NCBI RefSeq assembly: GCF_035285525.1
Contig: NZ_JAYKGW010000244.1
Location: 1-32,000, forward strand
Direction: 5' to 3'
DNA length: 32,000 bases
DNA from: Okeania sp.
Lineage (GTDB): Bacteria; Cyanobacteriota; Cyanobacteriia; Cyanobacteriales; Microcoleaceae
This document shows positions 4,385-20,245 of the stretch, piece after piece (position 1 is the stretch's first letter; each line of letters begins with the position of its first letter). Below the pieces are notes generated by a model. That model searched no databases. It was not told the DNA's origin and was given only the letters and a program-made list of their open reading frames with translations. A program made the translations under genes and the position numbers.

Positions 4385-7300
4385 ATGATGAATGACACCG
4401 AATTTCTCGATATAACGCCCGTCCTCGGACTACAACAAATCCACAATATGCCAGATATAGCTTTTCTAGGGGAAGTATCTGTAGAATCAGAGACAACAGT
4501 GGAAATAATTGAAAAAGCGTTAGCAGAAGTTCAGAATAATTTAATAGACTTTGCTACTGCTTCAACTTTTGAGATGGATATATTAACTGTGTTTGGGGAG
4601 TCAGTGGATGTTGATTTAGCAGAAACAATTATTGATGCTTTGGCAGTTGGTGAGGAGTTACCCCAAATAATTGTGGCGTCCGCAGAAGAGATGAATGGTG
4701 CAGCGGGTGGTCTTGATTCTATGAATGGTACGGTGTATTTGGCGGATAGTTTGATTAATGAGGGTTTTTTGCCTGTTGCGGATGTATTGGTGGAAGAGTT
4801 CGGACATTTGGTTGATTCGGAGTTGAATACAATAGATACTCCTGGAGATGAGGGGGAATGGTTTGCAGCCAAAGTTCGTGGTGATGTTTTGAGTGAGGAA
4901 GATGTGGCGCGGTTGCAGCAGGAAGATGATAAAATTAGGATTTTTGGTGGGTTAGTTGAGGTGGAGGCAAACACTTCAAAGGTATTCTCTTTAGATGACA
5001 GTAAGATTTTCAGTGGCGTTTTAAACGAATCTAATCAGACAGATTACTATCGTTTTGAACTCAGAAATGTTTCAGATTTCAGTGCCTATTTGTATGGATT
5101 GACTGGCGACGCAAATGTGTACCTTTATCCAGATTACAATAACAATGGTGTAGTTGATTCTGATGAAAGTTATTTAACTTACAGCAATAACGGTGGTACA
5201 AGTGCTGAATCTATAAGCGCAAGGCTGCCAGCTAACAACTATTTGGTAAGGGTTAGTAGCACTAACTTAGCAGAGTACCAACTTCGGCTTGTGAACGAAA
5301 CCGAAAGTGCTATAAACGTCGGTAATTTAAGGAGTGAGGTTATTTACAGCAAGGATAGCTTGCCGATCAAAGGTACACCTGACAAAACAGATTATTACCG
5401 CTTCGAGCTGAAAAAGGCTTCAGACTTCAGCGCTTATTTGTATGAATTGACTGGTGATGTCAATGTGTATCTTTATCCCGACTACAACGACAACGGTGTG
5501 ATTGATTCTGACGAAGGTTATTTGACTTACGGTAATAATGGTGGAACAACTGCCGAGTCTGTAACTGAAAGATTATCTGCTGGAAAATACTTAGTAAAAG
5601 TTAGCGGCGACTCTTCTACTTCGACAGAATACCAACTGCGACTTGTGAATGAATCTGGTAGCGCTGTCAATGTTGGGAATTTACAAAAAGATGCGATATA
5701 CAAAGATGTTGTTGGGGCAAGAAAACCGACTGATAAAACAGATTATTACCGCTTCGAACTGAAAAAAACTTCATACTTTAGTACTTATTTGTACGGATTG
5801 ACTGGGGATGCTAATATCTACCTTTATCCTGACTACAATGACAATGGTGTAGTTGATTCTGATGAAAGTTATTTAACTTACAGCAATAACGGTGGTACAA
5901 GTGCTGAATCTGCAAGCGCAAGGCTATCTGCAGGTAACTACTTGGTAGGAGTTTATAGCAACTCTTCTGTTTCGACAGAATACCAACTGCGACTTGCGAA
6001 CGAATCTGGTAGTGCTGTAAATGTTGGGAACTTACAAAAAGATGCCATCTACAAAGACATTGTTGGTGAAAGAAACCCAGCTGATAAAATAGATTATTAC
6101 CGCTTTGATCTAAAAAAGGCTTCAGACTTCAGTGCTTCTTTGTATGGGTTGACTGGTGATGCAAATTTGTACCTTTATCCAGATTACAACGGCAATGGTG
6201 TAGTTGACTCTGATGAAAGTTATTTAACTTACAGCAATAACGGTGGTACAAGTGCTGAATCTATAACTACGAGGCTATCTGCGGGTAAATATTTGGTGAG
6301 TGTTTACAGCAGCTCTCCGACTTCTACAGAATATCAACTTCGACTTGTAAATGAATCCAATGGTAGCGGAAACGAAAGTGATATTGTTGAATATCCTGAA
6401 AAAATTCCAGCGACAGTTGAATTTCCTGAAGAAAGGCTCAAACCTATTTCAGTTAACGATACTTCAAAAGGTCAAAACGAAGCAACCCCTAAAATAGCTA
6501 TCAGCAACGCGAACATCACTGAAGGCAACAAAGGTCGCAAAAACGCCAAATTTACTGTCACCCTTGACAATGAAAGTGACAACACAGTTCAAGTAAACTA
6601 CTCAACCGCCAACGATACCGCCAAAGCAGGAAAAGATTACCAGAAAACTAATGGTACTCTTACCTTCAAACCAGGTCAAACCAAAAAGACTATAAAGGTT
6701 CCTATCCTGGGCGACACTATCGAGGAAAGCAACGAAAAATTTAACCTCAACCTCAGCAAACCAAAAAATGCCACACTTTTAGATAAACGAGGCATCGGTA
6801 CTATTCGCAACGATGATAAAACTCTACCCAAAATATCCATTGGCGACGCCCAAATAACCGAAGGCGATAACGGCAAAAAACAACTCAAATTCGACGTTAC
6901 TCTCAGCACTACAGTGAACCAAAGAGTTGAAGTAAATTATGCCACCGCCGACGACACTGCCGAAAAAGGTTCCGACTACCAAAAAACTAAAGGTAAACTC
7001 GTTTTCAAACCCAACCAGAGGAAAAAGACTATAACTGTTCCCATTTTAGGTGATACTCTCCAGGAAGAAGATGAAACCTTCACCGTCAACCTCAGCAAAC
7101 CTAAAAATGCTAAATTGGGAGATAGACGCGCTATTGGTAAAATTAAAGACAATGAAAAAGGAAATCCCAAAAACCCAGATGATGGTGATACCTTTGATGT
7201 TCCCATCAACTTAGGCCAACTTGTGGAGAGAGAGGTAATCACCAATAACATCGGCACTACCGAAGGTCTGTACCGCGACACTGACGACTACTACCGCTTT

Positions 7301-7525
7301 AAAATTAACCGCGAAGGTACTTTACGGGTATTTATGGATAGTTTGTTTGAAGATGCTAACGTGGAATTATTAGGAAGTAAGCAAGAACTGATTAGTCAGT
7401 CAGAAAATGAGGGTTTAGCAGCGGAAGAGATTATTCAAACATTAGACCGTGGCGTTTATTATGTGCGGGTATATCCTAGCGGTGGCGATCGCACTCCTTA
7501 TCGTTTGAGCTTAACCCTGATTTAA
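4385..7525 (+). CDS. Large repeat protein, paralog of 1373..3955: shared N-terminal module + 4 PPC-like repeats with acidic DxNxNGxxDSDE loops + 2 Calx-beta repeats + C-terminal PPC-like domain
   Basis: 1046-aa ORF. The N-terminal ~200 aa are roughly 80-85 percent identical by eye to the 1373..3955 protein, including VLVEEFGHLVDS and DTPGDEG. There are four ~116-aa repeats (DKTDYYRFELKK.SDFSAYLYGLTGDANVYLYPDYNDNGVVDSDESYLTYSNNGGTSAES...YLV.V......EYQLRLVNES). Two Calx-beta-like units lie at about 6490-7150. The C-terminal PPC-like domain reads DTDDYYRF...GVYYVRVYP...PYRLSL. About 45 nt of 5' leader and the 3' flank, including a family-A MITE, are also duplicated. Confidence 0.9.
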   Translation: MMNDTEFLDITPVLGLQQIHNMPDIAFLGEVSVESETTVEIIEKALAEVQNNLIDFATASTFEMDILTVFGESVDVDLAETIIDALAVGEELPQIIVASAEEMNGAAGGLDSMNGTVYLADSLINEGFLPVADVLVEEFGHLVDSELNTIDTPGDEGEWFAAKVRGDVLSEEDVARLQQEDDKIRIFGGLVEVEANTSKVFSLDDSKIFSGVLNESNQTDYYRFELRNVSDFSAYLYGLTGDANVYLYPDYNNNGVVDSDESYLTYSNNGGTSAESISARLPANNYLVRVSSTNLAEYQLRLVNETESAINVGNLRSEVIYSKDSLPIKGTPDKTDYYRFELKKASDFSAYLYELTGDVNVYLYPDYNDNGVIDSDEGYLTYGNNGGTTAESVTERLSAGKYLVKVSGDSSTSTEYQLRLVNESGSAVNVGNLQKDAIYKDVVGARKPTDKTDYYRFELKKTSYFSTYLYGLTGDANIYLYPDYNDNGVVDSDESYLTYSNNGGTSAESASARLSAGNYLVGVYSNSSVSTEYQLRLANESGSAVNVGNLQKDAIYKDIVGERNPADKIDYYRFDLKKASDFSASLYGLTGDANLYLYPDYNGNGVVDSDESYLTYSNNGGTSAESITTRLSAGKYLVSVYSSSPTSTEYQLRLVNESNGSGNESDIVEYPEKIPATVEFPEERLKPISVNDTSKGQNEATPKIAISNANITEGNKGRKNAKFTVTLDNESDNTVQVNYSTANDTAKAGKDYQKTNGTLTFKPGQTKKTIKVPILGDTIEESNEKFNLNLSKPKNATLLDKRGIGTIRNDDKTLPKISIGDAQITEGDNGKKQLKFDVTLSTTVNQRVEVNYATADDTAEKGSDYQKTKGKLVFKPNQRKKTITVPILGDTLQEEDETFTVNLSKPKNAKLGDRRAIGKIKDNEKGNPKNPDDGDTFDVPINLGQLVEREVITNNIGTTEGLYRDTDDYYRFKINREGTLRVFMDSLFEDANVELLGSKQELISQSENEGLAAEEIIQTLDRGVYYVRVYPSGGDRTPYRLSLTLI
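5039..6360 (+). repeat. Four intragenic tandem repeats, 348-351 nt period
   Basis: The unit anchor ACAGATTA(C/T)TA recurs at 5039, 5387 and 5738, with a variant ATAGATTATTA at 6089. Long stretches are shared between units, e.g. GGTGTAGTTGATTCTGATGAAAGTTATTTAACTTACAGCAATAACGGTGGTACAAGTGCTGAATCT. Confidence 0.9.
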
Positions 7526-7805: not shown

Positions 7806-7898
7806 GAAAAATCAGCGCTTTTTGGGCGCATAGTTAGGCAAAAAAATTACTCCCTACCTCCCTACCTCCCTATCTCCCCATCACCCTATCTCCCTATC
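7806..7898. repeat. Dispersed repeat (family E) ending in an octamer array (TCCCTACC/TCCCTATC/TCCCCATC x6) that contains the mysD stop codon
   Basis: The octamer units run from 7851 to about 7898, and the TAG stop of 7894..8997 (7894-7896) lies inside the last units. The reverse complement (GGAGATAGGGTGATGGGGAG...GGGAGTAATTTTTTTGCC.AACTATGC) recurs at 19088-19135 and 20268-20330. Confidence 0.8.
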
Positions 7899-8997
7899 TC
7901 TCCACAACTCTATTGACATACTTAAACGTAGAACCACCCGCAACCCGAGTTCGTTTAGCTGCCACAGTCCACAACTCCAAAGCAATATCCTCAAAACTTT
8001 GCCCATCAGCTTCAAGCATCCGCGAAATCATGCTAATTTTCCCAAAAGCCCAAAATAAACCTGCTTCGAGCAAATATGGCTCATTGGTTTCCTCATGTAC
8101 CCGAAAGTCATACAAAGAATAATCGCGACAGCCCAAGGCAATATGAGCTGTTTTCGCTGCATTCGCTACTTTTTCAAATAACTCTGGGGTAACATTTGCC
8201 GGACAAACTTGTTTAGCTACAGGTTTCTCAGGTTGCTTTTCGGGAGTGCCGTCTGATCCTAGTTCTAATTTATCATGTAAAGTTCTAATCGGGTTTTCCT
8301 TTGTAACCAAATATTCTATCATTGGTAAGACTTGCCATTCACCCTTGCGCTCAACTACACCAACACGCAATTCTCTTCCCGGAATGTAATCTTCAACTAA
8401 CAAAGTATCATCTAGCTCAAACCCTTTATCTAATGCTGCTTCTATTCCAGTTTCATCCCATACCAATGTTATCCCTAGAGAATTATCTTCTGAAGTTGGC
8501 TTAACTACAAAAGGAGGCTTCATGGTTACAGTATCTCCCCGTCGTAGTTGCTGTGCTTTAGCTACTTGTACTCCAGACACTGAGACAATGTTGCGTGTGT
8601 GAGCTTTGTTAGTAGCTAGTGCCGTACAATGAGATGCCGAACCAACTACAGGTATACCTAGCATATCCTCGAAAAATGCTCGGAAACTGGTCATCCCAGG
8701 AAAGCAAAACATGTGTGGAATTACAACATCAATTTCAGGTAGTCGGGGAATCATGTCTTGAAATGATATTTTCTCAGACAATGAATCTAAGGATGCTCCC
8801 AACTGCCAAAAACCATCTGGATGTACGACTGCATAATAACTACTAACACCAACTGGTTGCACTACTTCTTTGGCGTAGAGTATTGATAAGTTGTAATAAA
8901 AGTTAGATACACGGGAACCTGCGAGGTGCAAGACTCGTAATGTAACCGTTGTGTCTGAGGACAGATGTTGATTTTGATTCACTATTTCTGATTTCAT
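7894..8997 (-). CDS. mysD: D-Ala-D-Ala-ligase-like ATP-grasp enzyme, MysD-type (adds the second amino acid to mycosporine-glycine)
   Basis: 367-aa ORF with a Ddl-like ATP-grasp layout (LRVLHLAGS...; GIPVVGS; FVVKP..EDNSLGI; EDYIPGRELRVGV). It is co-oriented with mysA/B/C, and no NRPS-type mysE is present. The assignment rests on family resemblance plus cluster context. Confidence 0.8.
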   Translation of the reverse strand: MKSEIVNQNQHLSSDTTVTLRVLHLAGSRVSNFYYNLSILYAKEVVQPVGVSSYYAVVHPDGFWQLGASLDSLSEKISFQDMIPRLPEIDVVIPHMFCFPGMTSFRAFFEDMLGIPVVGSASHCTALATNKAHTRNIVSVSGVQVAKAQQLRRGDTVTMKPPFVVKPTSEDNSLGITLVWDETGIEAALDKGFELDDTLLVEDYIPGRELRVGVVERKGEWQVLPMIEYLVTKENPIRTLHDKLELGSDGTPEKQPEKPVAKQVCPANVTPELFEKVANAAKTAHIALGCRDYSLYDFRVHEETNEPYLLEAGLFWAFGKISMISRMLEADGQSFEDIALELWTVAAKRTRVAGGSTFKYVNRVVER

Positions 8998-9030
8998 AAC
9001 TAAATTATTCTGTATTGTTTTGATTAAAAA

Positions 9031-9092
9031 AGGAACCCAGAAACCCGGTTTCTTTGTTCTGGTAGAAACCGAGTTTCTTTGCGTAAGTCCTG
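9031..9092. mobile_element. Family-A MITE occupying about two-thirds of the 95-bp spacer between the DMT transporter gene and mysD
   Basis: AGGAACCCAGAAACCCGGTTTCTTTGTTCTGGTAGAAACCGAGTTTCTTTGCGTAAGTCCTG; the 3' terminus TGCGTAAGTCCT is the family TIR. Confidence 0.75.
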
Positions 9093-10073
9093 TTAATTAG
9101 AAGACTTAATTTCTGGATTTACAGAAGATCTACTAGAGATTGCCAAAGACATTCCCAATAAAATTATCATAAAACTTACCAAAGTTGAGAAGTTAAGATT
9201 TTCTGAGAAGATTACCCAACCTTCTACTGCACTGAGAAAGGGAATAAATAATGCAGTCAAGCTAGTAAACCCAGGAGATAATTTTTTCAGACAATATACC
9301 CAAAGTCCTATGCCTAGCATTTGACTAATAAGAGCTTGACCAATAACTGAAAGCCAACCACTTAATGAACTGGGAAAAAGTTGATCCTCAGTAATTAGAA
9401 CTACAGGTAATAGTAATAATGCACTTGTTGTTGAAGACCAGGACATAATTGTCACTGGGCTAAACTGGTTACGAAGTTGCTTAATAATGAGCGGGTGTAT
9501 GCCAAAAAATACTGCTGAAAGCAAGGCTGCTAAATCTCCTAATAGTTCTGCACTCATTCTCAATGAGAAAAGGTCATTTACATCTAACAAAGCAGAACCA
9601 AAAATTGTGACAAACATACCTAACATAAATCGGCGATCGACGGTTTGACTCAAAGCTAACCATCCTCCTAGAACAGTAAAAATTGGCACCAAATTATGAA
9701 TAAGAGTAGAGTGAGCAATACTTGTCTGAGTTAAAGACCAAGCCCAAAACATCAAACCAATGGATAAAATAACCCCATCTGCTATCAGTAGTTTGGCTGC
9801 CTTAGCTAGATGGGGTTTCTCTGATTCAATTTGAGTCTCATTTTTTCGTTTTCGGTAATGGATGGTTATAAATCTACTTAGTAGCCCAAAAGCAATAGCT
9901 GCAATCCAAAAACGATTGAATATTGTAGCATTCGGACTGAGATCATATTCGCTTAAACGGATGAAAATTGGTGAAAAAGATAGACAGATTAGACCACCAA
10001 ATAATGCAGCTAAGGAGTCTATCGGTAATAACGATAAATGGTTAAATTGTAATGCTTTAGCTTGAGTGTTCAT
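9093..10073 (-). CDS. DMT-superfamily (EamA-like) permease
   Basis: 326-aa polytopic membrane protein with about ten hydrophobic segments in two similar halves. This is typical of EamA-domain metabolite exporters. Confidence 0.8.
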   Translation of the reverse strand: MNTQAKALQFNHLSLLPIDSLAALFGGLICLSFSPIFIRLSEYDLSPNATIFNRFWIAAIAFGLLSRFITIHYRKRKNETQIESEKPHLAKAAKLLIADGVILSIGLMFWAWSLTQTSIAHSTLIHNLVPIFTVLGGWLALSQTVDRRFMLGMFVTIFGSALLDVNDLFSLRMSAELLGDLAALLSAVFFGIHPLIIKQLRNQFSPVTIMSWSSTTSALLLLPVVLITEDQLFPSSLSGWLSVIGQALISQMLGIGLWVYCLKKLSPGFTSLTALFIPFLSAVEGWVIFSENLNFSTLVSFMIILLGMSLAISSRSSVNPEIKSSN

Positions 10074-10423
10074 TTTTCTCCTGATATCATGTCCGGTTGA
10101 ATAGTTACATTTCGGACGAAGGAAGGCAGCTATGCTGAATGCAGAAGCTTTTCTACTATTTTTACCTTGATTTTATACACCCACGGTGCCCGAAAAATCA
10201 GATGCTAACTGACATGATATGATTTATAAAATTAACAAAAATAAAATCAATTTTGATCGGTAAATTACAGCGGGTTCCAGTTTGGTGAGGTATAGCAATG
10301 TGCGCACTTAATATTTAAATATTATTTTTTGTACACTTTGTCTAGAATCGACTTTGAGCTGGGCTTTGTAAATACCTGATCGCTCATTCCTATACATCCG
10401 CGCGAGCAAAATGTACTGTTCCC

Positions 10424-11842
10424 CTACTCTCTACTCCCTAAATTTGCAATTCCATAAACAATAAAACCTGCTGCCATACCAGGAAATACTTCATAAATAG
10501 CACTTGATAAGTTAAGTCCTACATTCCAGATAATAGAAACGACTATACCAGTAATCATCATTGTTATTGCCACTGGCAAGCTTACAGGTTTTTGCCATAC
10601 CCGCAATACCAATAACGGACCTAAACCACAAGCTAAAACTGACCAAGAAAAAATTACCAAACCAAATACACTCTTGTTTGCTGTGAGAGCGATCGCCAAC
10701 ACAATACCACTAACAAGTAGGGTAGCAATTTTAACTTTCCTATAAGATTGAGTAGCACGGGGAACTAAATCTTGACTGAGAGCAGCAGAACATGATAATA
10801 TTTGGGAATCTGCTGTGGAAATAGCTGCTGAAAAAAGTCCTGCTAACATCAAACCTATCAAAATTGTTGGCAATAATTCTATGGATAAATTCGGTAATGC
10901 TAATTCTGGGTCTCCAGATGTCATTAAGTCAGGCAACAAAACTCTGGCAGTTAGTCCTATACCAAAAGCTGTAGCAGAATTCATTTGACCGCAGATAAAT
11001 TTTATGTTACGAGCTAAGGCTACATTATCTGCGGAGTCTATTGCCATTCCTCTCACCAATATATGAGGTTGACCAACTGCACCAAACCCTGCGACTACCC
11101 ATCCCAAAAAGTAAGGAACAAATCCCCAACGTAAATTAGCAGGTATCCAGTTTGTCAAGTTAGGATCGATAGCATTAAGTTTGACCCAAAGTTCTCCAAA
11201 TCCTCCACAGGCAATTAAACTTACGATAAACAGAACCCACAAAGACCCGATCATTAAAACTGCTTGCACGGAGTCAGTCCAGATAGAAGCTCGGATACCT
11301 CCTGCAAAACAGTAGGCTACCACAATTACAGATCCAATAATAATCCCTACTTGATAGTTCCACCCAAATATGGCATTCAATCCTTTGCTTGCTGCTACCA
11401 GTTGAGCTGAGGCATAAGTACCGAGAAATACTATGATGATTAAGGCTGAAATTATTCTAATCCAGCGCCCCTGATTTTTCTGCCCCTGATTTTCTTGACC
11501 TAAAAATGAAGAAACTGTATCCGAATTTGTTTCCTGAGAAACTAACCTCAACCTCCTAAATATTAACCACCAAGCAATATAGTCTCCTATCGCCCAAGCT
11601 ATGGGTATCCAAATAGAAGCAAATCCCACCTTGTAGGTAAAACCAATTACGCCAATAAACAGATATCCACTTTGACCTGTTGCCATTGCTGATAGTGCTG
11701 TTAACCAGGGATTGACATTTCTACTTGCTAGTAAGTAATCTGTTGTTGTGTTTTGTTTTTGGGTTGCCGAATATATACCAACTAATGTAAATGACAGTAA
11801 AAAGGCAATAAATGTTATGGCAATCCAAATTTGTTTTTCCAT
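10424..11842 (-). CDS. Sodium:solute symporter family (SSS, PutP-like) transporter
   Basis: 472-aa polytopic protein with SSS hallmarks as I recall them from PutP-type proteins: DYLLASRN..PWLTALSAMATGQSGYLF, GGIRASIWTDSVQ, GQPHILVRGMA, AAISTADSQILSCSAALSQDL. Confidence 0.85.
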   Translation of the reverse strand: MEKQIWIAITFIAFLLSFTLVGIYSATQKQNTTTDYLLASRNVNPWLTALSAMATGQSGYLFIGVIGFTYKVGFASIWIPIAWAIGDYIAWWLIFRRLRLVSQETNSDTVSSFLGQENQGQKNQGRWIRIISALIIIVFLGTYASAQLVAASKGLNAIFGWNYQVGIIIGSVIVVAYCFAGGIRASIWTDSVQAVLMIGSLWVLFIVSLIACGGFGELWVKLNAIDPNLTNWIPANLRWGFVPYFLGWVVAGFGAVGQPHILVRGMAIDSADNVALARNIKFICGQMNSATAFGIGLTARVLLPDLMTSGDPELALPNLSIELLPTILIGLMLAGLFSAAISTADSQILSCSAALSQDLVPRATQSYRKVKIATLLVSGIVLAIALTANKSVFGLVIFSWSVLACGLGPLLVLRVWQKPVSLPVAITMMITGIVVSIIWNVGLNLSSAIYEVFPGMAAGFIVYGIANLGSRE

Positions 11843-12008
11843 AATTTTAGGTCAATTGCTAGGGAAAACTCAGGATTGACATCCTCTCCTTTTCAAACCA
11901 AATTTATTCTAGCATCGAAAATTAAAGTTTAATAAAAAAACTATAAATTATATTTTTTTTCTTAATTTACTTTTTATTAAATGAAAAACAAATTAGCTTT
12001 GATATAAA

Positions 12009-12110
12009 CAGGACTTACGCAAAGAAACCCGGTTTCTACGAGAAATTGTTGTTTTGAACAGTAAGAATCTAGGAGAAACCAGAAACCCGGTTTCGCGTGG
12101 CTTTAGTCCC
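12009..12110. mobile_element. Family-A MITE
   Basis: CAGGACTTACGCAAAGAAACCCGGTTTCTAC...GGAGAAACCAGAAACCCGGTTTCGCGTGGCTTTAGTCC. Confidence 0.75.
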
Positions 12111-12243
12111 GATCAAATCAATCTGTTTTTTTAGCGATCGCTCTATGATTACTAATTTTTGAATATGTACCTCACAATAACAGAAATCACTAGCTCTAGT
12201 AGGTTTGGTTAAGGTACGAAACAAGGGCAAAAATTTTGTGTAT

Positions 12244-12305
12244 TAGGGTGGGTTTATATAAACCTTAGAATAAGCATGAAAATTTCCGATCAAACCCGCC
12301 CCTAC
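12244..12305. mobile_element. Family-C hairpin MITE
   Basis: TAGGGTGGGTTTATATAAACCTTAGAATAAGCATGAAAATTTCCGATCAAACCCGCCCCTAC is collinear with the unit at 72-134. Confidence 0.85.
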
Positions 12306-12321
12306 ATATTGCACCATTTTA

Positions 12322-12532
12322 GCAGACGTAGTAAATTAATAATTAGAAATAGTTTTAACTACCAATTGTTAATTATTAATAATTAATTATTTAATCTCCC
12401 CCCAATTCTAGCAGCAGACGTAGGTTGGGTTTCGTACCTCAACCCAACATTAGTAAATTAATAATTAGAAATAGCTTTAACTACCAATTATTAATTATTA
12501 ATTATTAATTATTTAATCTCCCCCCAATTCTA
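12322..12532. repeat. Tandem duplication of the mysC 3' end plus downstream sequence (copy A 12322-12410, copy B 12414-12532)
   Basis: Both copies run GCAGACGTAG...TAAATTAATAATTAGAAATAG.TTTAACTACCAATT.TTAATTATTAAT...ATTTAATCTCCCCCCAATTCTA. The last 20 nt (12391-12410 and 12513-12532) encode ELGGD-stop of mysC. Copy B carries an extra ~30-bp hairpin GTTGGGTTTCGTACCTCAACCCAAC flanked by TAG on both sides. (TTAATTA)n heptamers are expanded in copy B. Confidence 0.9.
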
Positions 12533-13877
12533 CCAGTTTTCCAATATTAAAATCAATTCTAATCCACCCTTTTAACTTTGGCAAATTACCTAATAAAAGT
12601 AAAGGAATTTGCCAGTGGTGAACCATTAAAAATGGTAAAGGATCGCTAACTTGAAAAATACCATCTGTTCCTTGATTAATTCTTTGAATCCAAGCCTTGA
12701 ATTGTGCTAATGACTTAATCCCTGTCAATCTCCATAATTCATGGTAAGTCCAATAAGTAGGTTTACTATTTGGCAGCGGAATTATTGCAGATTCATTCTC
12801 ATTTTCACTATCTTTTAAATAAGCATTCGCCACCCCTGGATGGTCGTGAAAAGTTGTAATAGCTGAGTGAGTTCTAGGATTACATTCTAAAGGAAAAACT
12901 CGACCATCTTCTGTTTGAATAAAATCAAAAGACATTTGCCCAGTAATATTTAATTCCCCTACAAATTTCTTTACCCAATCATAAATTTGCGGATTATCAA
13001 CATGGTCATAATTTACTTGAAATTCTGATGATTCACAACAGCAATAGACTCTAAGTTTCCCTTTTCTGACAGTGCTATGGGTACAATATTCTTTACCTTT
13101 AATAAACTCTTGCATAATCCAAGGTTGCTCTTCACTAATAGGCAAACTTTTGAGAAATTGTTCCATTTCTGCTTTGGAATCCATAGGCAATTTTGTCAAA
13201 TTTAAACGCAGCACTGAATTGTAAGGAATGCTTTTCAAAATATATCTACTTCCATCAGCAGCAAAGTCAAAATTAAGAACTTGTTCTGGGTCTGTAATTA
13301 AAAAAGATTTAGGTACAGACAAACCAAAACTTTTAGCTTTTTCGATAAAAGTAAACTTATTATCTAACATTTCAGTAATCTCAGTATCAAAGTGCAAAAC
13401 TTCACAATGTTCAGATAAAAGAGGTTTTGCTAAAGATTCATAATAGCTTCCTGCTGGACTAGATACAGGAATAAATACATCTATATTTTCTTTTTTGACA
13501 ATATCTAATAATCCCTGACAATAACCATCCCAATCTTTCTCAGGTGCAGGTATTGTATAGAAACCTGTAACAGCATTAGAAAATCTATTTCCTGATAACC
13601 AATATTTATTTGCTTCTAGGATAAAAACTTTATGACCTGCTGCATGAAATGAACGGGCAAGTTGCAAACATTTTGCCATTTTTGCCCCTGTAATTAAGAT
13701 ATTTTTCGGATTTTCTGCTACTACTTTTTTGGTAAATGGTAGACTTATAAAATTCCAGATAAGTGAAGGTATTACCTTCAATAAATTAAATGGTAAAAGA
13801 ACTAATAATAAAATAATAGTTCCGATATTTTGGAACAGTGCATAAGCACGTCCCTGAATAAATAATATTAGTGCCAT
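12513..13877 (-). CDS. mysC: ATP-grasp ligase MysC (4-deoxygadusol + glycine -> mycosporine-glycine)
   Basis: 454-aa ORF with a hydrophobic N-terminal segment. ILITGAKMAKCLQLARSFHAAGHKV, CNPRTHSAIT and the C-terminus IDFNIGKLVELGGD match my recollection of characterised MysC proteins (Anabaena variabilis Ava_3856, Nostoc punctiforme NpR5598). Confidence 0.9.
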   Translation of the reverse strand: MALILFIQGRAYALFQNIGTIILLLVLLPFNLLKVIPSLIWNFISLPFTKKVVAENPKNILITGAKMAKCLQLARSFHAAGHKVFILEANKYWLSGNRFSNAVTGFYTIPAPEKDWDGYCQGLLDIVKKENIDVFIPVSSPAGSYYESLAKPLLSEHCEVLHFDTEITEMLDNKFTFIEKAKSFGLSVPKSFLITDPEQVLNFDFAADGSRYILKSIPYNSVLRLNLTKLPMDSKAEMEQFLKSLPISEEQPWIMQEFIKGKEYCTHSTVRKGKLRVYCCCESSEFQVNYDHVDNPQIYDWVKKFVGELNITGQMSFDFIQTEDGRVFPLECNPRTHSAITTFHDHPGVANAYLKDSENENESAIIPLPNSKPTYWTYHELWRLTGIKSLAQFKAWIQRINQGTDGIFQVSDPLPFLMVHHWQIPLLLLGNLPKLKGWIRIDFNIGKLVELGGD

Positions 13878-13916
13878 ATTAGTAGTTTTATAGAAATAAA
13901 AAAAAGTTAAAAATAT

Positions 13917-14020
13917 CAGGACTTACGCACACCAAACCCAGAAACCCGGTACGAGGGTAGATGTTTATAGTTCAAAACAACGGTTTGTCCTAGAAACCGG
14001 GTTTCCCATGCGTAAGTCCT
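13917..14020. mobile_element. Family-A MITE with clean 12-nt TIR
   Basis: CAGGACTTACGCACACCAAACCCAGAAACCCGG...CTAGAAACCGGGTTTCCCATGCGTAAGTCCT. Confidence 0.85.
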
Positions 14021-14096
14021 AAATATATGATTGTGTAAGCATGCAGCCGTCAGCTAGCTACTGGTAGTCCATTATTTTATCTTAAATAATGCAATA

Positions 14097-14158
14097 GTAG
14101 GGGCGGGTTTGATCAGAAATTTTTCTGCTTACTCTAGGATTTATATAAACCCGCCCCT
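14097..14158. mobile_element. Family-C hairpin MITE (inverted orientation)
   Basis: GTAGGGGCGGGTTTGATCAGAAATTTTTCTGCTTACTCTAGGATTTATATAAACCCGCCCCT is the reverse complement of the 72-134 type. A partial GGGGCGGGTTGATC follows at 14178-14191. Confidence 0.85.
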
Positions 14159-14407
14159 GAAACGGCAGCCTATATCATGGGGCGGGTTGATCTGACTTAA
14201 TGCGTGAAAACTCGTTAACTTTCGTTATGATTTTTCGGGAACCGTAACCCGCTTCTACAGAACCTGATTCCCTAATGCACCATTTCAGGCGTGTCAGTCG
14301 AGTAGGGTTTGTTTTCGGCCTTTGAGCCGACATGAAACGCTGCGCGACATGAAAAGCGTTGGCGCAGCATTCCCCAAGAAAACGTAACACACCAATCAAA
14401 TATATCA

Positions 14408-14929
14408 TGACTAAAGCCATGAATGCTATTATTAGGGTGTGTTTTGCGTTCCGCAAAGCTCCGCTTTATATGTCGGCTCAAGCGCCGAAACGCTACGCGA
14501 CATGTGAAGCGCACAACGCACAACGCACCCACACATTATATATAGTACCTTTGCCTAAGTCCTGATATATAGAGTTGTTGCGTAAGTCCTAAAATATATG
14601 ATTTAGGACTTACGCACGAACACTATTTTTAGGGTGCGTTTTGCGTTCCGCAAAGCTCCGCTTTATATGTCGTCTCAAGCGCCGAAACGCTACGGGACAT
14701 GGAAAGTATATCTCGTAACTGAGCAAGACTCTATATATAGTGCCTCCCGTGTAAGTCCTGAATATATGATTTAGGACTTACGCATGAACGCTATTATTAG
14801 GGTGTGTTTTGCGTTCCGCAAAGCTCCGCTTTATATGTCGGCTCAAGCGCCGAAAGGCTGCACGACATGAAAAGCGCACAAAGCACAAAGCACCAAGACT
14901 CTATATATAGTGCCTCCCGTATAAGTCCT
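14408..14929. mobile_element. Three head-to-tail copies of a ~160-bp MITE (family B; ends AGGACTTACGCA / ..GT.TAAGTCCT)
   Basis: The copies lie at about 14408-14563, 14605-14759 and 14773-14929. They share ..CTATT.TTAGGGTG.GTTTTGCGTTCCGCAAAGCTCCGCTTTATATGTCG.CTCAAGCGCCGAAA.GCT.C..GACATG.AAAG...CTATATATAGT.CCT. Copies are separated by the same short spacer A(A)ATATATGATTT. An inverted partial copy lies at about 14270-14360. Confidence 0.85.
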
Positions 14930-14996
14930 GTAATTGTAGGAATTTTCACAAGTAGCAGGAAAAATGCCCGCGTGGGTGTATTGAACCAAGGTAAAA

Positions 14997-15827
14997 CTAC
15001 TTTCGTCTAATAATAGTCACTCCATCTCTTAGAGGCAATAAAACTTGTTCTACTCTGGGGTCTTCTGCCACAAAACGATTAAATTGAGCGATCGCTTCAC
15101 CATTAGTAGTACGTTTTTCTGGAGGGAGATAAGGTTGTCCTTGGAGTAAAGTATTATCAACAAAAATAAACCCATTTGGTGCTAATAAACCTGTATCCAA
15201 GAGCATTTGAAAATATTCTATATACCCTCCTTTATCAGCATCAATAAACACTAAGTCAAAGGATTCTCCTGCATCTGCCAACTTTTTCATAGTTTCTATA
15301 GCTGGAGCAACTTCGATTGATATTTTACTACCATCAGGAGACTTGTCAAAACAAGCTCTAGCAAAGTCAGATACATATTGATCGACTTCACAAGCAACCA
15401 TTCGCCCATCTTCTGGTAATGCTTCTGCCATTGCTAATGCTGAATATCCAGTAAACATTCCGATTTCCAGAATACTTTTGGCTCCAGTCATATAAACAAA
15501 CATTTTTAAAGTTTGCCCCTCAATATGCCCAGATAACATTTCCTGTTCTAACTGACGTACAGTCTCACTATTAGAAAATCTTAAATTCCAGGGTTCTTGG
15601 CGAGTCTTTTCTGCTAATGCTGCCAAAGCAGTTGACTCTTGAGTAGTCATGTCCTCTATATAAGGGTCAAGACCTGCTCCTAATTCATAAGCTTCTTTAA
15701 TAGCATCAGCTAGCTCGGATGGTACTTCTATATTTTCTGCCATCTTGACAATTTTTTCAAGTTGCTGCACCAAAATACCTAATGGTGTAACTGGTCTGGC
15801 AGTTTCTGTATTTACAACGGTTGTCAT
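14997..15827 (-). CDS. mysB: SAM-dependent O-methyltransferase MysB (desmethyl-4-deoxygadusol -> 4-deoxygadusol)
   Basis: 276 aa. ARPVTPLGIL, LEQEMLSGHIEGQTLKMFV, LEIGMFTGYSALAMAEALPEDG, FDLVFIDADK, VDNTLLQG and VEQVLLPLRDGVTIIRR match my recollection of Ava_3857/NpR5599-type MysB (caffeoyl-CoA OMT-like fold). Confidence 0.92.
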   Translation of the reverse strand: MTTVVNTETARPVTPLGILVQQLEKIVKMAENIEVPSELADAIKEAYELGAGLDPYIEDMTTQESTALAALAEKTRQEPWNLRFSNSETVRQLEQEMLSGHIEGQTLKMFVYMTGAKSILEIGMFTGYSALAMAEALPEDGRMVACEVDQYVSDFARACFDKSPDGSKISIEVAPAIETMKKLADAGESFDLVFIDADKGGYIEYFQMLLDTGLLAPNGFIFVDNTLLQGQPYLPPEKRTTNGEAIAQFNRFVAEDPRVEQVLLPLRDGVTIIRRK

Positions 15828-15830
15828 TTC

Positions 15831-15851
15831 AGTTATTAGTTATTAGTTATT
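15831..15851. repeat. Heptamer array (AGTTATT)x3 immediately upstream of the mysB start codon
   Basis: AGTTATTAGTTATTAGTTATT begins 4 nt upstream of the mysB ATG (15825-15827) in gene orientation. A second heptamer array (GGGAGTA)x3 lies at 15881-15905. Confidence 0.85.
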
Positions 15852-16028
15852 AGTAGTGCATTAGACATCTCCAGAAAAGAGGGAGTAGGGAGTAGGGAGT
15901 AGGGGGAAAGAATAGATGATTTTCGTACGATAATTGATTTAATTTTTTATTTTTGGAGATGTCTATTGTTTCACCTAAAATAGTGCAATAGCTTTTTTTG
16001 TGACCCCATCCCCCCATCTCCCCATTTT

Positions 16029-16147
16029 CTAATGCACCATTTAAGATGACACAGTCCAGTAGGGTGTGTTTCGCTACGCGACATGAAAAGCGCACTTCAT
16101 AACGCAACTACACACTATATGTAGTACATTTCTTTGCATAAGTCCTG
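16029..16147. mobile_element. Family-B-related MITE copy
   Basis: CTAATGCACCATTTAAGATGACACAGTCCAGTAGGGTGTGTTTCGCTACGCGACATGAAAAGCGCAC...CACACTATATGTAGTACATTTCTTTGCATAAGTCCTG is collinear with 26806-26917 and the 14408-14929 copies. Confidence 0.75.
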
Positions 16148-16402
16148 TTACTCTAAACCTAGATCGCTGCTCTATCAAACTTACACAAAAAGTCACATAG
16201 TGTGACAATTTGATACTTACTCACCTGCTGTACGGACGTTGCATAACAAAAATGCGAACGTCCCTACTGAGGCCGTCGGCGGTTTCTCACCCACAGACAT
16301 TCACGGTCCTTTGATCCGCAACGCTAGTGCGAAGGGAGTCAGCGGAGCGTAGCTCTGGCCGACCGCATCTCTCGCTATTTATACTTGCGTTTAAATCTCT
16401 AG

Positions 16403-16493
16403 GCAAAGAAACCCGGTTTCTACACTAAATCACTGTTTTGAACAAGAAACATCTAGGAGAAACCGGCTTTCTGGGTTTTGCTGCGTAAGTCCT
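16403..16493. mobile_element. Family-A MITE ending 7 nt from the mysA stop codon
   Basis: GCAAAGAAACCCGGTTTCTACACTAAATCACTGTTTTGAACAAGAAACATCTAGGAGAAACCGGCTTTCTGGGTTTTGCTGCGTAAGTCCT; its internal part is collinear with 12009-12110. Confidence 0.8.
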
Positions 16494-16500
16494 TTGTCTT

Positions 16501-17829
16501 TTACTCTAGACCTAAATCACTCAAATACATTTCTTCGCCTTGTCCTTCACCAGGTAAAGCAGCACAATATTTCTTATGCTCCTCAACAGCAGATTCTAAG
16601 AACAATGAAGGTACTTCACCAGCAAAACTACAAGAACCAATACCTGTAGGTAGAGGTGCCCATAGACCACTACTACCACGCTTGCGACGCATATTTTTCT
16701 GACCTTTAAGCATTAACTCTGTATCTTCGATGATAGGATGGTAAACTGACAAGCCGATAGAAGAACACAAAGCAACGATGCGGTTGCGCTCTGCTTCATT
16801 TACCCAACCCATTTCTAAAGCTAGAGTAGCTCCAAAAGCCATACCAATACCTACAGCATGACCGTGCATCAATTTAGCTGCTGGCTCAAAACGAGGACTC
16901 CAGGTATGACCGTAAGCGTGAGGTCTGTCTTGATAGGTCTCGAACATATTTGTTCCTTCATGCTTCATGTAGGAATACAAAGCACGATAAATCACTTCAT
17001 CAGCTATTTTCACTAATTCCTCATCCGCATCAAAGTTGGCAAAATGAGTATCCAATAAACGCTTACCGTATTTTTCCATCAATTCAAATAATACTGGATC
17101 ATCGGTAACTGCCATTTTAATGATTTCTGCCATTCCATTACGAATATGACCTTTTGCCAGAGTAGCGAATAAAGTACGGTCTACAATAGTTAGTACAGGA
17201 GGATGGTAAGCACCAATACTATTCTTAAATAGATTACCATTTGTACAAGTACGAGGAGATGGAGCCGCATCAATAGCTGCCACAATTGAACTTCCAATCA
17301 TTACATAAGGTGTCCGTCTGTGTTGCAAACTACAAGCTAAACCTGCAACATCACTTAGTACACCACCTCCAATGACTAAAACAGGTTCGTTACGGGATAC
17401 ATCACAACCATCTTTACCCAAGAATGCCAATATTTTATGGACTGTTTCTGGAGTTTTGTCTGATTCCCAAGCACGACAAACAAGCACTTCTAAAGGAATC
17501 TCATTTTGATTAAAGTAATTTTTCAGTTTCTCTCCGTATAGCTCATCTACTGTCTTATCGACAACTGCTACACAACGACCACGACTTTTGTAAACTTCAG
17601 CTAAAGTAGGATCAGATGGATTTAAAACTCCAGTAACTAATCTTACTTCTGACTGGAGAGTAAATGTTGCATTAATTTGGAATGAACGACCATCTTCTAC
17701 AGCTCTGATTTCTCCACGGCCATCATACCATTCTGAGGTACGATATTTTTCTGCGTGCTCGCGACGAATACTTGGATCGAATGTAAAGTCGGCTTTTGTG
17801 ATTTCTTCTTTTACTGGAGTAGATACCAT
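16501..17829 (-). CDS. mysA: DHQS-like sedoheptulose-7-phosphate cyclase; by context desmethyl-4-deoxygadusol synthase (MysA)
   Basis: 442 aa with sugar-phosphate-cyclase motifs: VLVIGGGVLSDVAG, KNSIGAYHPP, RNGMAEIIKMAV, HAYGHTWSP, HGHAVGIGMAF. It lies directly upstream of mysB and mysC on the same strand. Distinguishing DDGS from EEVS/EVS needs an alignment I cannot run. Confidence 0.85.
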   Translation of the reverse strand: MVSTPVKEEITKADFTFDPSIRREHAEKYRTSEWYDGRGEIRAVEDGRSFQINATFTLQSEVRLVTGVLNPSDPTLAEVYKSRGRCVAVVDKTVDELYGEKLKNYFNQNEIPLEVLVCRAWESDKTPETVHKILAFLGKDGCDVSRNEPVLVIGGGVLSDVAGLACSLQHRRTPYVMIGSSIVAAIDAAPSPRTCTNGNLFKNSIGAYHPPVLTIVDRTLFATLAKGHIRNGMAEIIKMAVTDDPVLFELMEKYGKRLLDTHFANFDADEELVKIADEVIYRALYSYMKHEGTNMFETYQDRPHAYGHTWSPRFEPAAKLMHGHAVGIGMAFGATLALEMGWVNEAERNRIVALCSSIGLSVYHPIIEDTELMLKGQKNMRRKRGSSGLWAPLPTGIGSCSFAGEVPSLFLESAVEEHKKYCAALPGEGQGEEMYLSDLGLE

Positions 17830-19366
17830 AGTTTTTGGTTGTATTTAGGTAATTGTTTGCATTAGAACTTTAGCTTGCTGCTATCACACAACAAACTCTT
17901 GCGACTACACTTGAAGTTAGTATAGTAGCTTAATTTAATACTTGTTTGGGAACTACGCCCAGATAGCGATCACTACGGATATACCTGAAATCACGACTAA
18001 CCATACAACACATATAGTTGTGGCATAAGTCTCAATTATGATTTATATTGATGATATAACCTAAAGGACTTGCTATTTCTTGGGAGCAGTTTTTCAGTAT
18101 TGAATAATAGGGTAATTATTTTTGTTGCTATCTTGTGCTTGAATGTTAGTACATATAGCAAATTCCAAATATATGAAGCACAGATTTATTTATTAAATCT
18201 TCATAAGTAGCGATTTTTCGGGAACCGTCCATCCTACTCGCTTAAGTGTATCTCATAAAAGTGGAATCCGCTGTAATACATTAAATCTAGATGAATCTTC
18301 GTGTAAATCTTTTAAAGAATCACTTTGATCCACCATAAATTTAACAATTTTCCTAAAATAGAATATCCCATTATGCAATCGCTTTTTTATCACAGCAAAA
18401 CTTAGCTCAGTTTGCTTAACTGTTGATCGCAAAACTGAACTAATGCTTATTGGTTTTTGCTTATAATTGTGGTTCTCCACAATTCTATAGTGGAAAGTTG
18501 CTCTTCTTCTTTCTCGTCTAATTTCCACTTTAGATTAGAACCATGATTCACATTTTGATCTGGGTTTAATAGTTTCCTGATAGTTCTGGTGTCTAGCATA
18601 GTTGTTAAGTCCTCTGTTTATTACTAAATAACTTACTGATAAGTATTGATTGTGCCAACCTGAACCCTATTGAAAGTTTTTAGTTGGCCTTTAGAGATTT
18701 TGCTACTGCTTTTGCTGAAAGGCAAACTCAACAACTGATATTAAGTCCATAGCCAATGAGGGCTTTTCGGTACTTCTTGCCTACTTTAAAAAGTCCTACC
18801 TATGGTTAATAGCACATAATATTTTTATAGTCAAGTAATTAACTTAAAAATTAATTTTTTACTCTTGACTCTCAGTTTAACCCTAATTACTACTCTTTTT
18901 ACTTAATATTAATTTAATAGTTCTTAAGATTTATTAAAAATGTATAAAATTAGTAAATAATTTACATTTTTAACCTTATTTTATAGTAAGATACTTATTT
19001 TTTTCAATATAACTATTATCTAGTCCACCTAATGTCCAAGTTAGATATTAGGTATTGGAGTAAGTAGGGTTTGCGGAAAAAATATTTTTAAGGAGATAGG
19101 GTGATGGGGAGTAATTTTGTTGTCCAACTCTTCCCCAAAGTAGGCTCCTTTTTGAATCAGAGCTACTCAAAAAGTTGCACTTTTAGGGTTCCCGATAAAT
19201 CAGAACCTAAAAAAGCTAAAATCTTTAAATGATTTTTGAGAAAAAAAATTGTTTGGGTTTGGTCTCCAAACCCAAACGTAATTGGTCTCCAAACCCAAAC
19301 TTAAAGGGATTCGGCAACCGAACCCCCTTGGCTCAAATCTGACAATCTATTTAGGATTGCGATATA

Positions 19367-20245
19367 TTGCCAAGAATAACTTTTGATAAAAATAATATGG
19401 GGAACCAAGAATATCTAGCTTTACTCAATTGTGGCGTCATTGCTTGGAATGAATGGAGGGATAAAAATCTACATTTACAACCCGATTTTACTAATGCTAA
19501 CTTAAGAGGTTTAAATTTAGAAGGTGTTAATTTTCAAGGAGTAAATTTAACGGGAGCTAATCTATCTTTATGTAAACTGATTAATGCTAATTTTATAGAT
19601 GCTAATTTAACTTCAGCAGAACTGATTAATGCTAACTTAACTGCTACTAATCTTCAAGGTGCTAACTTAAGAAATGCTAATTTTATCTCTGCCGATCTCA
19701 GAAACGCTAATTTAAGTGAAGCGGATTTAGTTAATGCTAATTTAATTGGAACTGACTTACAAAATTCTAATTGTCGATATGTTGATGGAACTTCTGCTAA
19801 CCTGAGCAGAAGCAATTTAGCTAACGCAGATTTCAGAGAAACCAACTTCAGTTATGCTAATTTCAGTCATGCTAATCTTTATCAAACTGAATTAATTAAA
19901 GCATATTTTTACCAAGCTAATTTATACCATGCAAATCTAATTAGAGCTAGTCTAAGTAGGATTTATTTATCCAATTCTTCTTTAAGAGCAGCAAACCTTT
20001 ATAGAGCAGATTTGAGATTTGCTGAACTAAGAAAAGTTGACCTGCAAAACGCAAATTTACAAGAAACTTATTGCCGAAGTATTAATCTCAATCAAGCTAT
20101 TTTAACTAGAGCAGATTTGAGAGGAGCAAATTTGAGAGGAGCAGATTTGAGAAAAGTCGATCTTAGTGATGCTTTAATTGATAATATTAATCTTGTAGAT
20201 GCTAATCTTCAGAAAGCAATTATGCCTGATAGTAAAATTAATTAG
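19367..20245 (+). CDS. Pentapeptide-repeat protein
   Basis: Long run of A(N/D)L.. pentapeptides (NLRGLNLEGVNFQGVNLTGANLSLCKLINANFIDANLTSAELINANL...). The track start at 19367 is TTG; the first ATG (MGNQEY..) is at 19397, so the true start is uncertain. Confidence 0.88.
   Translation: MPRITFDKNNMGNQEYLALLNCGVIAWNEWRDKNLHLQPDFTNANLRGLNLEGVNFQGVNLTGANLSLCKLINANFIDANLTSAELINANLTATNLQGANLRNANFISADLRNANLSEADLVNANLIGTDLQNSNCRYVDGTSANLSRSNLANADFRETNFSYANFSHANLYQTELIKAYFYQANLYHANLIRASLSRIYLSNSSLRAANLYRADLRFAELRKVDLQNANLQETYCRSINLNQAILTRADLRGANLRGADLRKVDLSDALIDNINLVDANLQKAIMPDSKIN

Follow-up and report, generated by a model that had tools for sequence, protein, structure and literature searches.

The window analysed here is a stretch of 32,000 nucleotides from the cyanobacterium Okeania sp. 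(NCBI RefSeq assembly GCF_035285525.1, contig NZ_JAYKGW010000244.1, positions 1 to 32,000). It carries a locus which, judged from its gene content, is a cyanobacterial mysABCD-type biosynthetic cluster for mycosporine-like amino acids (MAAs); all four enzyme assignments hold. An open reading frame (ORF) scan revealed six co-oriented minus-strand ORFs between positions 7894 and 17829, encoding the cyclase MysA, the methyltransferase MysB, the ligases MysC and MysD and two transporters located between the latter (Table 1). The original prediction, made from the bare sequence, had proposed this gene set as a complete four-enzyme MAA route. Its coordinates, strands and spacers (673, 1119, 670, 350 and 95 bp from mysA to mysD, computed from the ORF ends) were reproduced exactly, and the route is borne out by Pfam and NCBIfam matches, trees and synteny. 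The stated lack of a nonribosomal peptide synthetase (NRPS)-type mysE also stands for the window, as no ORF in it matched the AMP-binding or PP-binding families of Pfam and NCBIfam. Overall, we consider it very probable that the locus is an MAA cluster of the type found in Okeania, Dapis and Trichodesmium, with the pathway, transporter roles and upstream element outlined below.

Table 1. Features of the mys locus in window coordinates
Feature	Position	Strand	Basis and remarks
mysA, type II sedoheptulose-7-phosphate cyclase resembling desmethyl-4-deoxygadusol synthase (DDGS), 442 aa	16501..17829	-	Pfam DHQ_synthase and DHQS_C
mysB, O-methyltransferase, 276 aa	14997..15827	-	Pfam Methyltransf_3, E 1.3e-51
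mysC, ATP-grasp ligase, 454 aa	12513..13877	-	NCBIfam NF005315/PRK06849, 552.7 bits (cut-off 406)
Cluster-associated sodium:solute symporter, SSF family, 472 aa	10424..11842	-	Pfam SSF, E 1e-60
Cluster-associated EamA/DMT-family transporter, 326 aa	9093..10073	-	Pfam EamA, two matched stretches, E 1e-33
mysD, ATP-grasp enzyme resembling D-Ala-D-Ala ligase, 367 aa	7894..8997	-	Pfam Dala_Dala_lig_C
Conserved 50-codon small ORF, MLDTRTIRKLLNPDQNVNHGSNLKWKLDEKEEEQLSTIELWRTTIISKNQ	18447..18599	-	Third-codon-position variation; about 620 bp upstream of mysA
Hairpin from the small-ORF stop codon, followed by a U-rich stretch	18394..18447	-	Predicted -18.8 kcal/mol, z = -3.1, 0/200 shuffles fold as well
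Terminator-like hairpin, 12-bp stem followed by T8	19251..19277	-	Between the start of the pentapeptide-repeat gene and the small-ORF region
Element resembling a miniature inverted-repeat transposable element (MITE), ~103 nt, bounded by terminal inverted repeats AGGACTTACGCA...TGCGTAAGTCCT and containing GAAACCCGGTTTC motifs inside	13918..14020		Motif scan
Array of three 133-168-nt repeat units filling the mysB-mysC spacer	14418..14930		Repeat family D1; Tandem Repeats Finder period 168, 2.1 copies

A scan for MysC in one genome per species yielded 80 loci, whose MysC proteins are 62-87% identical to that of the window, and the gene order of related loci was compared by tblastn. The closest loci belong to Okeania, Dapis and Trichodesmium erythraeum IMS101 (MysC 85-87% and prfA 94-97% identical). 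These identities assign the window to a marine filamentous cyanobacterium of this lineage, in the family Microcoleaceae. The order mysA-mysB-mysC-SSF-EamA-mysD is common to these and to several metagenome-assembled genomes (MAGs), and prfA, a 159-aa ORF and a pentapeptide-repeat gene are also kept upstream in loci of this type. The adjacency of mysA and mysB is preserved in about 65 related loci. The arrangement is not due to chance, as dozens of species show an identical order of genes. The separation of mysD from mysABC by two transporter genes, which had been regarded as a departure from the textbook clusters, is real but no oddity: among the loci compared it is the usual layout within the Okeania/Dapis/Trichodesmium lineage and is also frequent in marine cyanobacteria outside it.

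Cyclase subtype and predicted product

The cyclase had been described as less similar to its Anabaena and Nostoc counterparts than MysB and MysC, and its subtype as worth verifying. The first statement is accurate, as MysA is 37-38% identical to Ava_3858, the crystallised DDGS of Anabaena, and to MysA of Nostoc linckia, compared with 68% for MysB and 66% for MysC relative to N. linckia NIES-25. The doubt over the subtype proved equally justified. The 65 MysC-linked cyclases sampled split into two clean clades. Type I (n = 25, with open frames of about 419 codons) resembles Ava_3858 and N. linckia MysA. Type II (about 440-450 aa) comprises 40 of the 65 sequences, or roughly 60%, and includes the window enzyme together with those of Okeania, Trichodesmium, Symploca, Moorena, Coleofasciculus, Crocosphaera, Aphanizomenon, Dolichospermum and Sphaerospermopsis. 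By sequence, type II MysA is a distinct subclade, within which the window protein is 80-91% identical to its Trichodesmium, Okeania and Dapis orthologues. With AroB as outgroup, type II groups with the type I DDGS enzymes, and ValA, an EEVS (synthase of 2-epi-5-epi-valiolone), branches outside both MysA clades.

Searches with phmmer point in the same direction. The best match in the PDB is the Anabaena DDGS (5TPR, 289 bits), followed by the EEVS ValA (4P53, 202 bits) and by 3-dehydroquinate synthases (DHQSs) with at most 92 bits; sequence identities amount to 38% with Ava_3858, 35% with ValA and 23% with Escherichia coli AroB. An assignment as AroB/3-dehydroquinate synthase was rejected, as the score of 146.6 bits lies far below the TIGR01357 equivalog cut-off of 305 and the protein falls apart from the AroB outgroup in the tree. 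The metal-ligand motifs of the DHQS fold are nevertheless kept (RNGMAE at residue 230, YGHTW at 306 and HGHAV at 322) and align with those of 5TPR.

According to a review, EEVS and DDGS are distinguished by a fingerprint of three residues, L267/D281/H360 being replaced by E254/A268/T347, of which the first two positions were confirmed by mutagenesis (PMC10666671). In this three-residue version, which we applied throughout, the window MysA carries Glu291, Ala305 and Lys383 (codons 16957-16959, 16915-16917 and 16681-16683) and is DDGS-like at both mutagenesis-validated positions. Across type II, Glu is invariant at the position of Ava_3858 residue 254 (40/40), Ala prevails at position 268 (36/40, with Gly in three and Ser in one), and position 347 is always occupied by the Lys of an RKRG motif (40/40), as opposed to Thr in all 25 type I enzymes. 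The Glu/Ala/Lys combination in place of Leu267/Asp281/His360 of ValA and the lower bit score of the latter led us to reject an assignment as EEVS.

From these data we infer that type II MysA is most likely a DDGS by function. Three points weigh against this assignment. The window enzyme is as distant from the crystallised DDGS (38% identity) as Ava_3858 itself is from the EEVS ValA (39%); the third fingerprint position is Lys throughout the type II clade, where DDGS has Thr347 and EEVS His360, and the mutagenesis support covers the other two positions; and we found no biochemical characterisation of any type II MysA in the literature searched. The same points, together with the small difference in identity to DDGS and EEVS, would accommodate a type II cyclase which is not a DDGS and whose product is another C7-cyclitol derivative, based on EEV (2-epi-5-epi-valiolone), EV (2-epi-valiolone) or gadusol, instead of the canonical MAAs. 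We regard this scenario as highly improbable in view of the DDGS-type Glu and Ala residues and the difference of 289 versus 202 bits. Moreover, the partner methyltransferase is of the MysB type (Methyltransf_3) and not a methyltransferase-oxidoreductase (MT-Ox) fusion, MysC and MysD are present, and type I and type II mysA occupy the same place next to mysB and mysC in otherwise homologous clusters. The Aphanizomenon, Dolichospermum and Sphaerospermopsis genomes in the locus set carry type II mysA, and strains of these genera with mysABCD are known to produce porphyra-334 and shinorine (PMC11738650; PMC13280781). If type II MysA acts as a DDGS, a form of the enzyme only ~38% identical to its sole crystallised representative is carried by the sampled genomes of Trichodesmium, Okeania and Aphanizomenon/Dolichospermum.

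The remaining enzymes are less divergent. MysB is 83-92% identical to its orthologues in Okeania, Dapis and Trichodesmium and its gene always adjoins mysA, and MysC shares 86% identity with its counterpart from T. erythraeum IMS101; a search of solved structures gave no sequence match for MysC. MysD scores below every Ddl/Van cut-off of NCBIfam (at best 105.7 bits versus 243). In a neighbour-joining tree with three outgroups (E. coli DdlA and DdlB and Thermus Ddl) it belongs to one of two MysD clades, both of which are separated from Ddl, and an identity as cell-wall D-Ala-D-Ala ligase was rejected on both grounds. The members of its clade are 66-86% identical to it and include the proteins of Lyngbya sp. 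PCC 8106 and Capilliphycus (76-77%), and those of the other clade, which holds the N. linckia MysD characterised in vitro, are 38-42% identical. Expression of the Lyngbya PCC 8106 mysD in yeast yielded more than 500 mg/L shinorine (PMC12232313), and the native Capilliphycus salinus strain produces mainly shinorine (PMC13280781).

Based on these assignments, the pathway would start with the conversion of sedoheptulose 7-phosphate into desmethyl-4-deoxygadusol by MysA and its methylation to 4-deoxygadusol by MysB. MysC would then add glycine to form mycosporine-glycine, and MysD would attach serine and, to some extent, threonine, giving mainly shinorine and some porphyra-334. Biosynthesis should stop at a simple disubstituted MAA because the window lacks the TauD-like oxygenase, the NAD-binding dehydrogenase and the NRPS found in relatives; the most parsimonious expectation is shinorine, alone or accompanied by porphyra-334.

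Transporters embedded between mysC and mysD

The two transporters are assigned at the family level. The SSF protein passes only the superfamily model TIGR00813 (191.5 bits, cut-off 184), and its identification as the sodium/proline symporter PutP was rejected on the basis of the TIGR02121 equivalog cut-off (268.8 versus 515.5 bits). The EamA protein does not reach the thresholds set for named exporters, YddG among them. Their distribution was counted in the 69 species loci that extend at least 5 kb beyond mysC. In 37 of these, mysC and mysD are separated by a transporter gene; an SSF orthologue follows mysC in 40, an EamA orthologue in 29 and both in 26. In Symploca, Coleofasciculus, Crocosphaera and some Hormoscilla loci only the SSF gene separates mysC from mysD, and the order is reversed to EamA-SSF in Lyngbya PCC 8106, L. 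aestuarii and Capilliphycus. When SSF homologues were taken as the starting point, the search ended again at mys clusters, namely those of Moorena and Crocosphaera. Judged by this recurrence, SSF and EamA are conserved parts of the mys locus. One paper remarks in general terms that transporter genes are often found in MAA clusters, and the Capilliphycus cluster was published as canonical, collinear mysABCD without mention of the transporters, though both are present (PMC13280781). The literature searched contained no characterised MAA transporter.

In functional terms, the EamA/DMT (drug/metabolite transporter) protein is most likely an MAA exporter, and the presumably Na+-coupled SSF protein most likely an importer serving the recapture of MAAs or the uptake of amino-acid substrates. 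A combination of export and import would fit MAAs acting both as sunscreen and as compatible solute in seawater. Several considerations count against these roles: substrates and directions of transport are purely deduced, the NCBI name of the SSF protein is sodium/proline symporter, and one SSF homologue of 65% identity lies outside any mys cluster beside an NAD-binding dehydrogenase gene. Both transporters might accordingly be passengers without a role in MAA metabolism, for example an osmoprotective proline or amino-acid symporter and a general exporter. Beyond the NCBI name, the sub-threshold similarity to PutP and the unlinked homologue, this explanation can draw on the Nostocales clusters of freshwater and terrestrial strains, such as that of N. 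linckia NIES-25, which are contiguous and work without SSF and EamA. We nevertheless consider it unlikely. The transporter genes are co-oriented with the mys genes and located inside the cluster in the 37 species loci across several families, the SSF search returns to mys clusters, and the existence of two different internal transporter orders argues that selection retains SSF and EamA. The conserved pair provides two specific candidates for MAA transporters, of relevance for engineered production and for understanding the release of MAAs into seawater.

As a separate observation, an NAD_binding_2 dehydrogenase gene repeatedly neighbours SSF (5372-6358 in both L084 and L085, 6959-7939 in L086). 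This neighbourhood occurs inside the Moorena mys cluster as well as at an SSF homologue unlinked to mys genes, which suggests that dehydrogenase and symporter form a pair.

A conserved small ORF upstream of mysA

Comparison of the region upstream of mysA by blastn revealed a block of ~630 bp that is 73-82% conserved in relatives amid otherwise unconserved AT-rich DNA. Its core is a small ORF containing the sequence LNPDQxVNHGCxLKWK, or in fuller form (P)LNPDQ[NQ][VI]NHGCxLKWK[LP]. The motif precedes mysA by 0.4-1.2 kb in Okeania, Dapis, Trichodesmium, Lyngbya, Capilliphycus, Coleofasciculus, Chroococcidiopsis and several MAGs and accompanies both MysA types. Among the orthologues are L004 5662-5808, L042 6878-6979 and L070 6739-6849; that of T. 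erythraeum IMS101 is located on the minus strand of NC_008312.1 at about 4,633,239-4,633,385. When 44,831 six-frame segments covering all loci were searched with a hidden Markov model (HMM), 34 genome loci proved positive. Each of these hits is upstream of mysA in the orientation of the mys genes, nothing else scored significantly, and the small ORF went undetected in Nostocales, Symploca, Moorena and Crocosphaera loci. A degenerate DNA pattern matched eight times in a metagenome collection; seven of the eight matches immediately precede mysA and share its strand, and the eighth shows the same synteny in a locus that ends before mysA.

The small ORF has a coding signature. In 26 unique sequences aligned over 21 codons, the entropy at codon positions 1, 2 and 3 amounts to 11.0, 8.4 and 24.8, synonymous swaps occur at nearly every conserved residue, and the flanking nucleotides are unconserved between lineages. 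This signature and the exclusive location at mys loci are direct observations. The peptide matches no Pfam or NCBIfam family, and its only database matches are three proteins, namely the window's own copy and two entries named "hypothetical protein". The literature searched yielded no account of a leader peptide or small ORF at mys loci and no regulator linked to mys clusters; the Trichodesmium primary-transcriptome paper does not mention the mys locus and provides no transcription-start evidence for the small ORF.

An untranslated element, i.e. a DNA or RNA regulatory site that is open in one frame by chance, would also account for a conserved block at this position. The strongly conserved codons number only about 16, start codons differ between lineages and some copies lack an ATG, one copy (L048) contains an in-frame stop codon, and gene callers rarely predict the ORF. 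Against this reading, variation is concentrated at third codon positions and synonymous codons are exchanged at nearly all conserved residues. The frame is moreover open over 45-80 codons in all but one of 29 sequences inspected, and neither an Rfam match nor a consensus RNA structure was obtained for the region. We therefore judge an untranslated element to be improbable.

For the translated small ORF, a leader or regulatory peptide and a small accessory protein appear to be the likeliest functions, and both the ORF and the hairpin that follows its stop codon are candidates for a regulatory or accessory role upstream of mysA. In the leader version, translation of the small ORF, perhaps with metabolite-sensitive ribosome pausing next to the hairpin, would set the read-through into mysA. 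The hairpin is a prediction from folding; a weaker one is predicted at the same place in relatives. Two results count against its conservation as a structure: RNAalifold gave no consensus downstream of the stop codon, and a 9-bp helix specified by hand showed pairing in 79.5% of cells but no significant covariation. Searches of Rfam returned nothing for the whole window at gathering thresholds and nothing for positions 17700-19400 at E-value thresholds, and tRNA scans were likewise empty. The terminator-like hairpin further upstream may act as an insulator from upstream minus-strand transcription.

As a tentative and rather doubtful extension, the small ORF could encode a previously undescribed peptide dedicated to MAA loci, either a cis-acting leader or a small accessory or regulatory protein, which together with SSF and EamA would complete a self-contained module to sense, make and move the sunscreen. 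If this were true, it would offer a first molecular handle on the regulation of MAA synthesis; as a mys-exclusive element the small ORF is in any case a concrete lead on this regulation.

Spacer repeats, genomic context and related clusters

The long spacers singled out in the original prediction are confirmed in length; their content consists of small dispersed MITE-like repeats and not of extra genes. They are long because they have been filled by insertions of such elements. The terminal repeat AGGACTTACGCA matches 15 times in the window compared with 0.09 expected and GAAACCCGGTTTC 20 times compared with 0.07, and further whole or partial copies are located at about 9030-9091, 12010-12094 and 16394-16493. 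Sites of the family (1241, 4048, 9080, 12010, 13918-14020, 14552-14784, 16135, 16482, 21477, 25317 and 26905) are concentrated in the mys spacers and also present elsewhere in the window. Between close relatives, orthologous spacers are of different length, and all that they have in common is fragments of repeats. ORFs of 85-93 aa in spacers and upstream DNA (14175-14456, 14272-14532, 15850-16107 and 18253-18528) were rejected as genes for want of any Pfam hit, and the Pfam search of spacer ORFs revealed no hidden genes.

Other repeats were noted beside the genes. Short tandem repeats at 7850-7913, 15880-15904 and 16004-16025 include the octamer CTCCCTAT (about 6 times) and the heptamer AGGGAGT (3.6 times); one array overlaps the last mysD codons and the stop codon, and another lies just upstream of the mysB start. 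An 86-nt direct repeat (12329-12414 and 12451-12536, with a period of 122 nt and 95% identity) provides a second copy of the final 24 nt of mysC and of the sequence following it.

The mys genes may form an operon. Two findings speak against it: joint transcription could suffer from the spacers of 0.35-1.1 kb, crowded as they are with hairpin-forming repeats, and scans for promoters and terminators gave counts no higher than in shuffled sequences and no support for an operon. In a more radical scenario the cluster is decaying, in that the invasion of MITE-like repeats has broken the operon and the genes are no longer expressed together. It would explain the repeat-packed spacers of 350-1119 bp, sizes unlike those of close relatives (the mysA-mysB spacer of Okeania SIO2F4 measures 171 bp) and the duplication of the mysC 3' end. 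We hold decay to be improbable, since none of the six ORFs is disrupted and each aligns over its full length with its orthologues (about 100% coverage), and long, variable spacers also occur in relatives including the MAA-rich Trichodesmium.

The mys locus sits in the core chromosome. A pentapeptide-repeat protein gene, prfA and the tail of a ribosomal-protein/rpoA/adk region are located upstream, and the other large ORFs of the window encode Calx-beta/PPC proteins and the housekeeping genes prfA, rpsI, rplM, truA, rplQ, rpoA, rpsK and adk. The Calx-beta/PPC-domain proteins are of a secreted type and are encoded by two large tandem plus-strand genes (1373-3955, 860 aa, and 4385-7525, 1046 aa), which lie downstream of mysD, are convergent with it and lack counterparts at the same position in related loci.

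Among known systems, the loci of T. erythraeum IMS101 (L004; NC_008312.1, about 4.618-4.639 Mb), Okeania and Dapis resemble the window most closely. They share the small ORF, type II mysA, mysB, mysC, SSF, EamA and mysD as well as the upstream prfA and pentapeptide-repeat genes, with protein identities of 73-91%. They differ in spacer lengths and repeat content and in additional genes. T. erythraeum possesses a TauD-like dioxygenase, two tandem mysD copies and an NAD_binding_2 dehydrogenase, and Okeania SIO2F4 and Dapis carry an NRPS with condensation, adenylation, thiolation and thioesterase domains (C-A-T-TE); none of these, including a second mysD, is present in the window. Extra genes after the transporters or mysD were observed in relatives at L002 16119-19895, L003 16629-21362, L005 7945-13283 and L004 14969-19978. 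Lyngbya sp. PCC 8106 and Capilliphycus salinus ALCB114379 share the MysD clade, both transporters between mysC and mysD and the small ORF upstream of mysA, but contain a type I MysA (38% identity) and the transporters in the order EamA-SSF. As an MAA cluster, the locus adds little; the genome assemblies of T. erythraeum IMS101 and Lyngbya PCC 8106 searched here contain orthologous loci.

The textbook clusters of Nostoc punctiforme (NpR5600-5598/NpF5597) and N. linckia NIES-25 (L066) encode the same four enzyme families in the same order, with MysB and MysC of the latter being 68% and 66% identical to those of the window. In contrast, they are contiguous and devoid of transporters, their MysA is of type I (Glu-Ala-Thr fingerprint, about 410 aa, 37% identity), their MysD belongs to the other clade (41% identity), and the small ORF was not detected. 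The mysABCE cluster of Anabaena variabilis (Ava_3858-3855) shares the chemistry of the first three steps, and its MysA (5TPR) has Glu254, Ala268 and the metal-ligand motifs in common with the window enzyme. However, Ava_3858 is 38% identical to the latter, contains Thr347 instead of Lys383 and is devoid of its ~35-aa N-terminal extension, and the last step in Anabaena is performed by the NRPS-like MysE and not by MysD.

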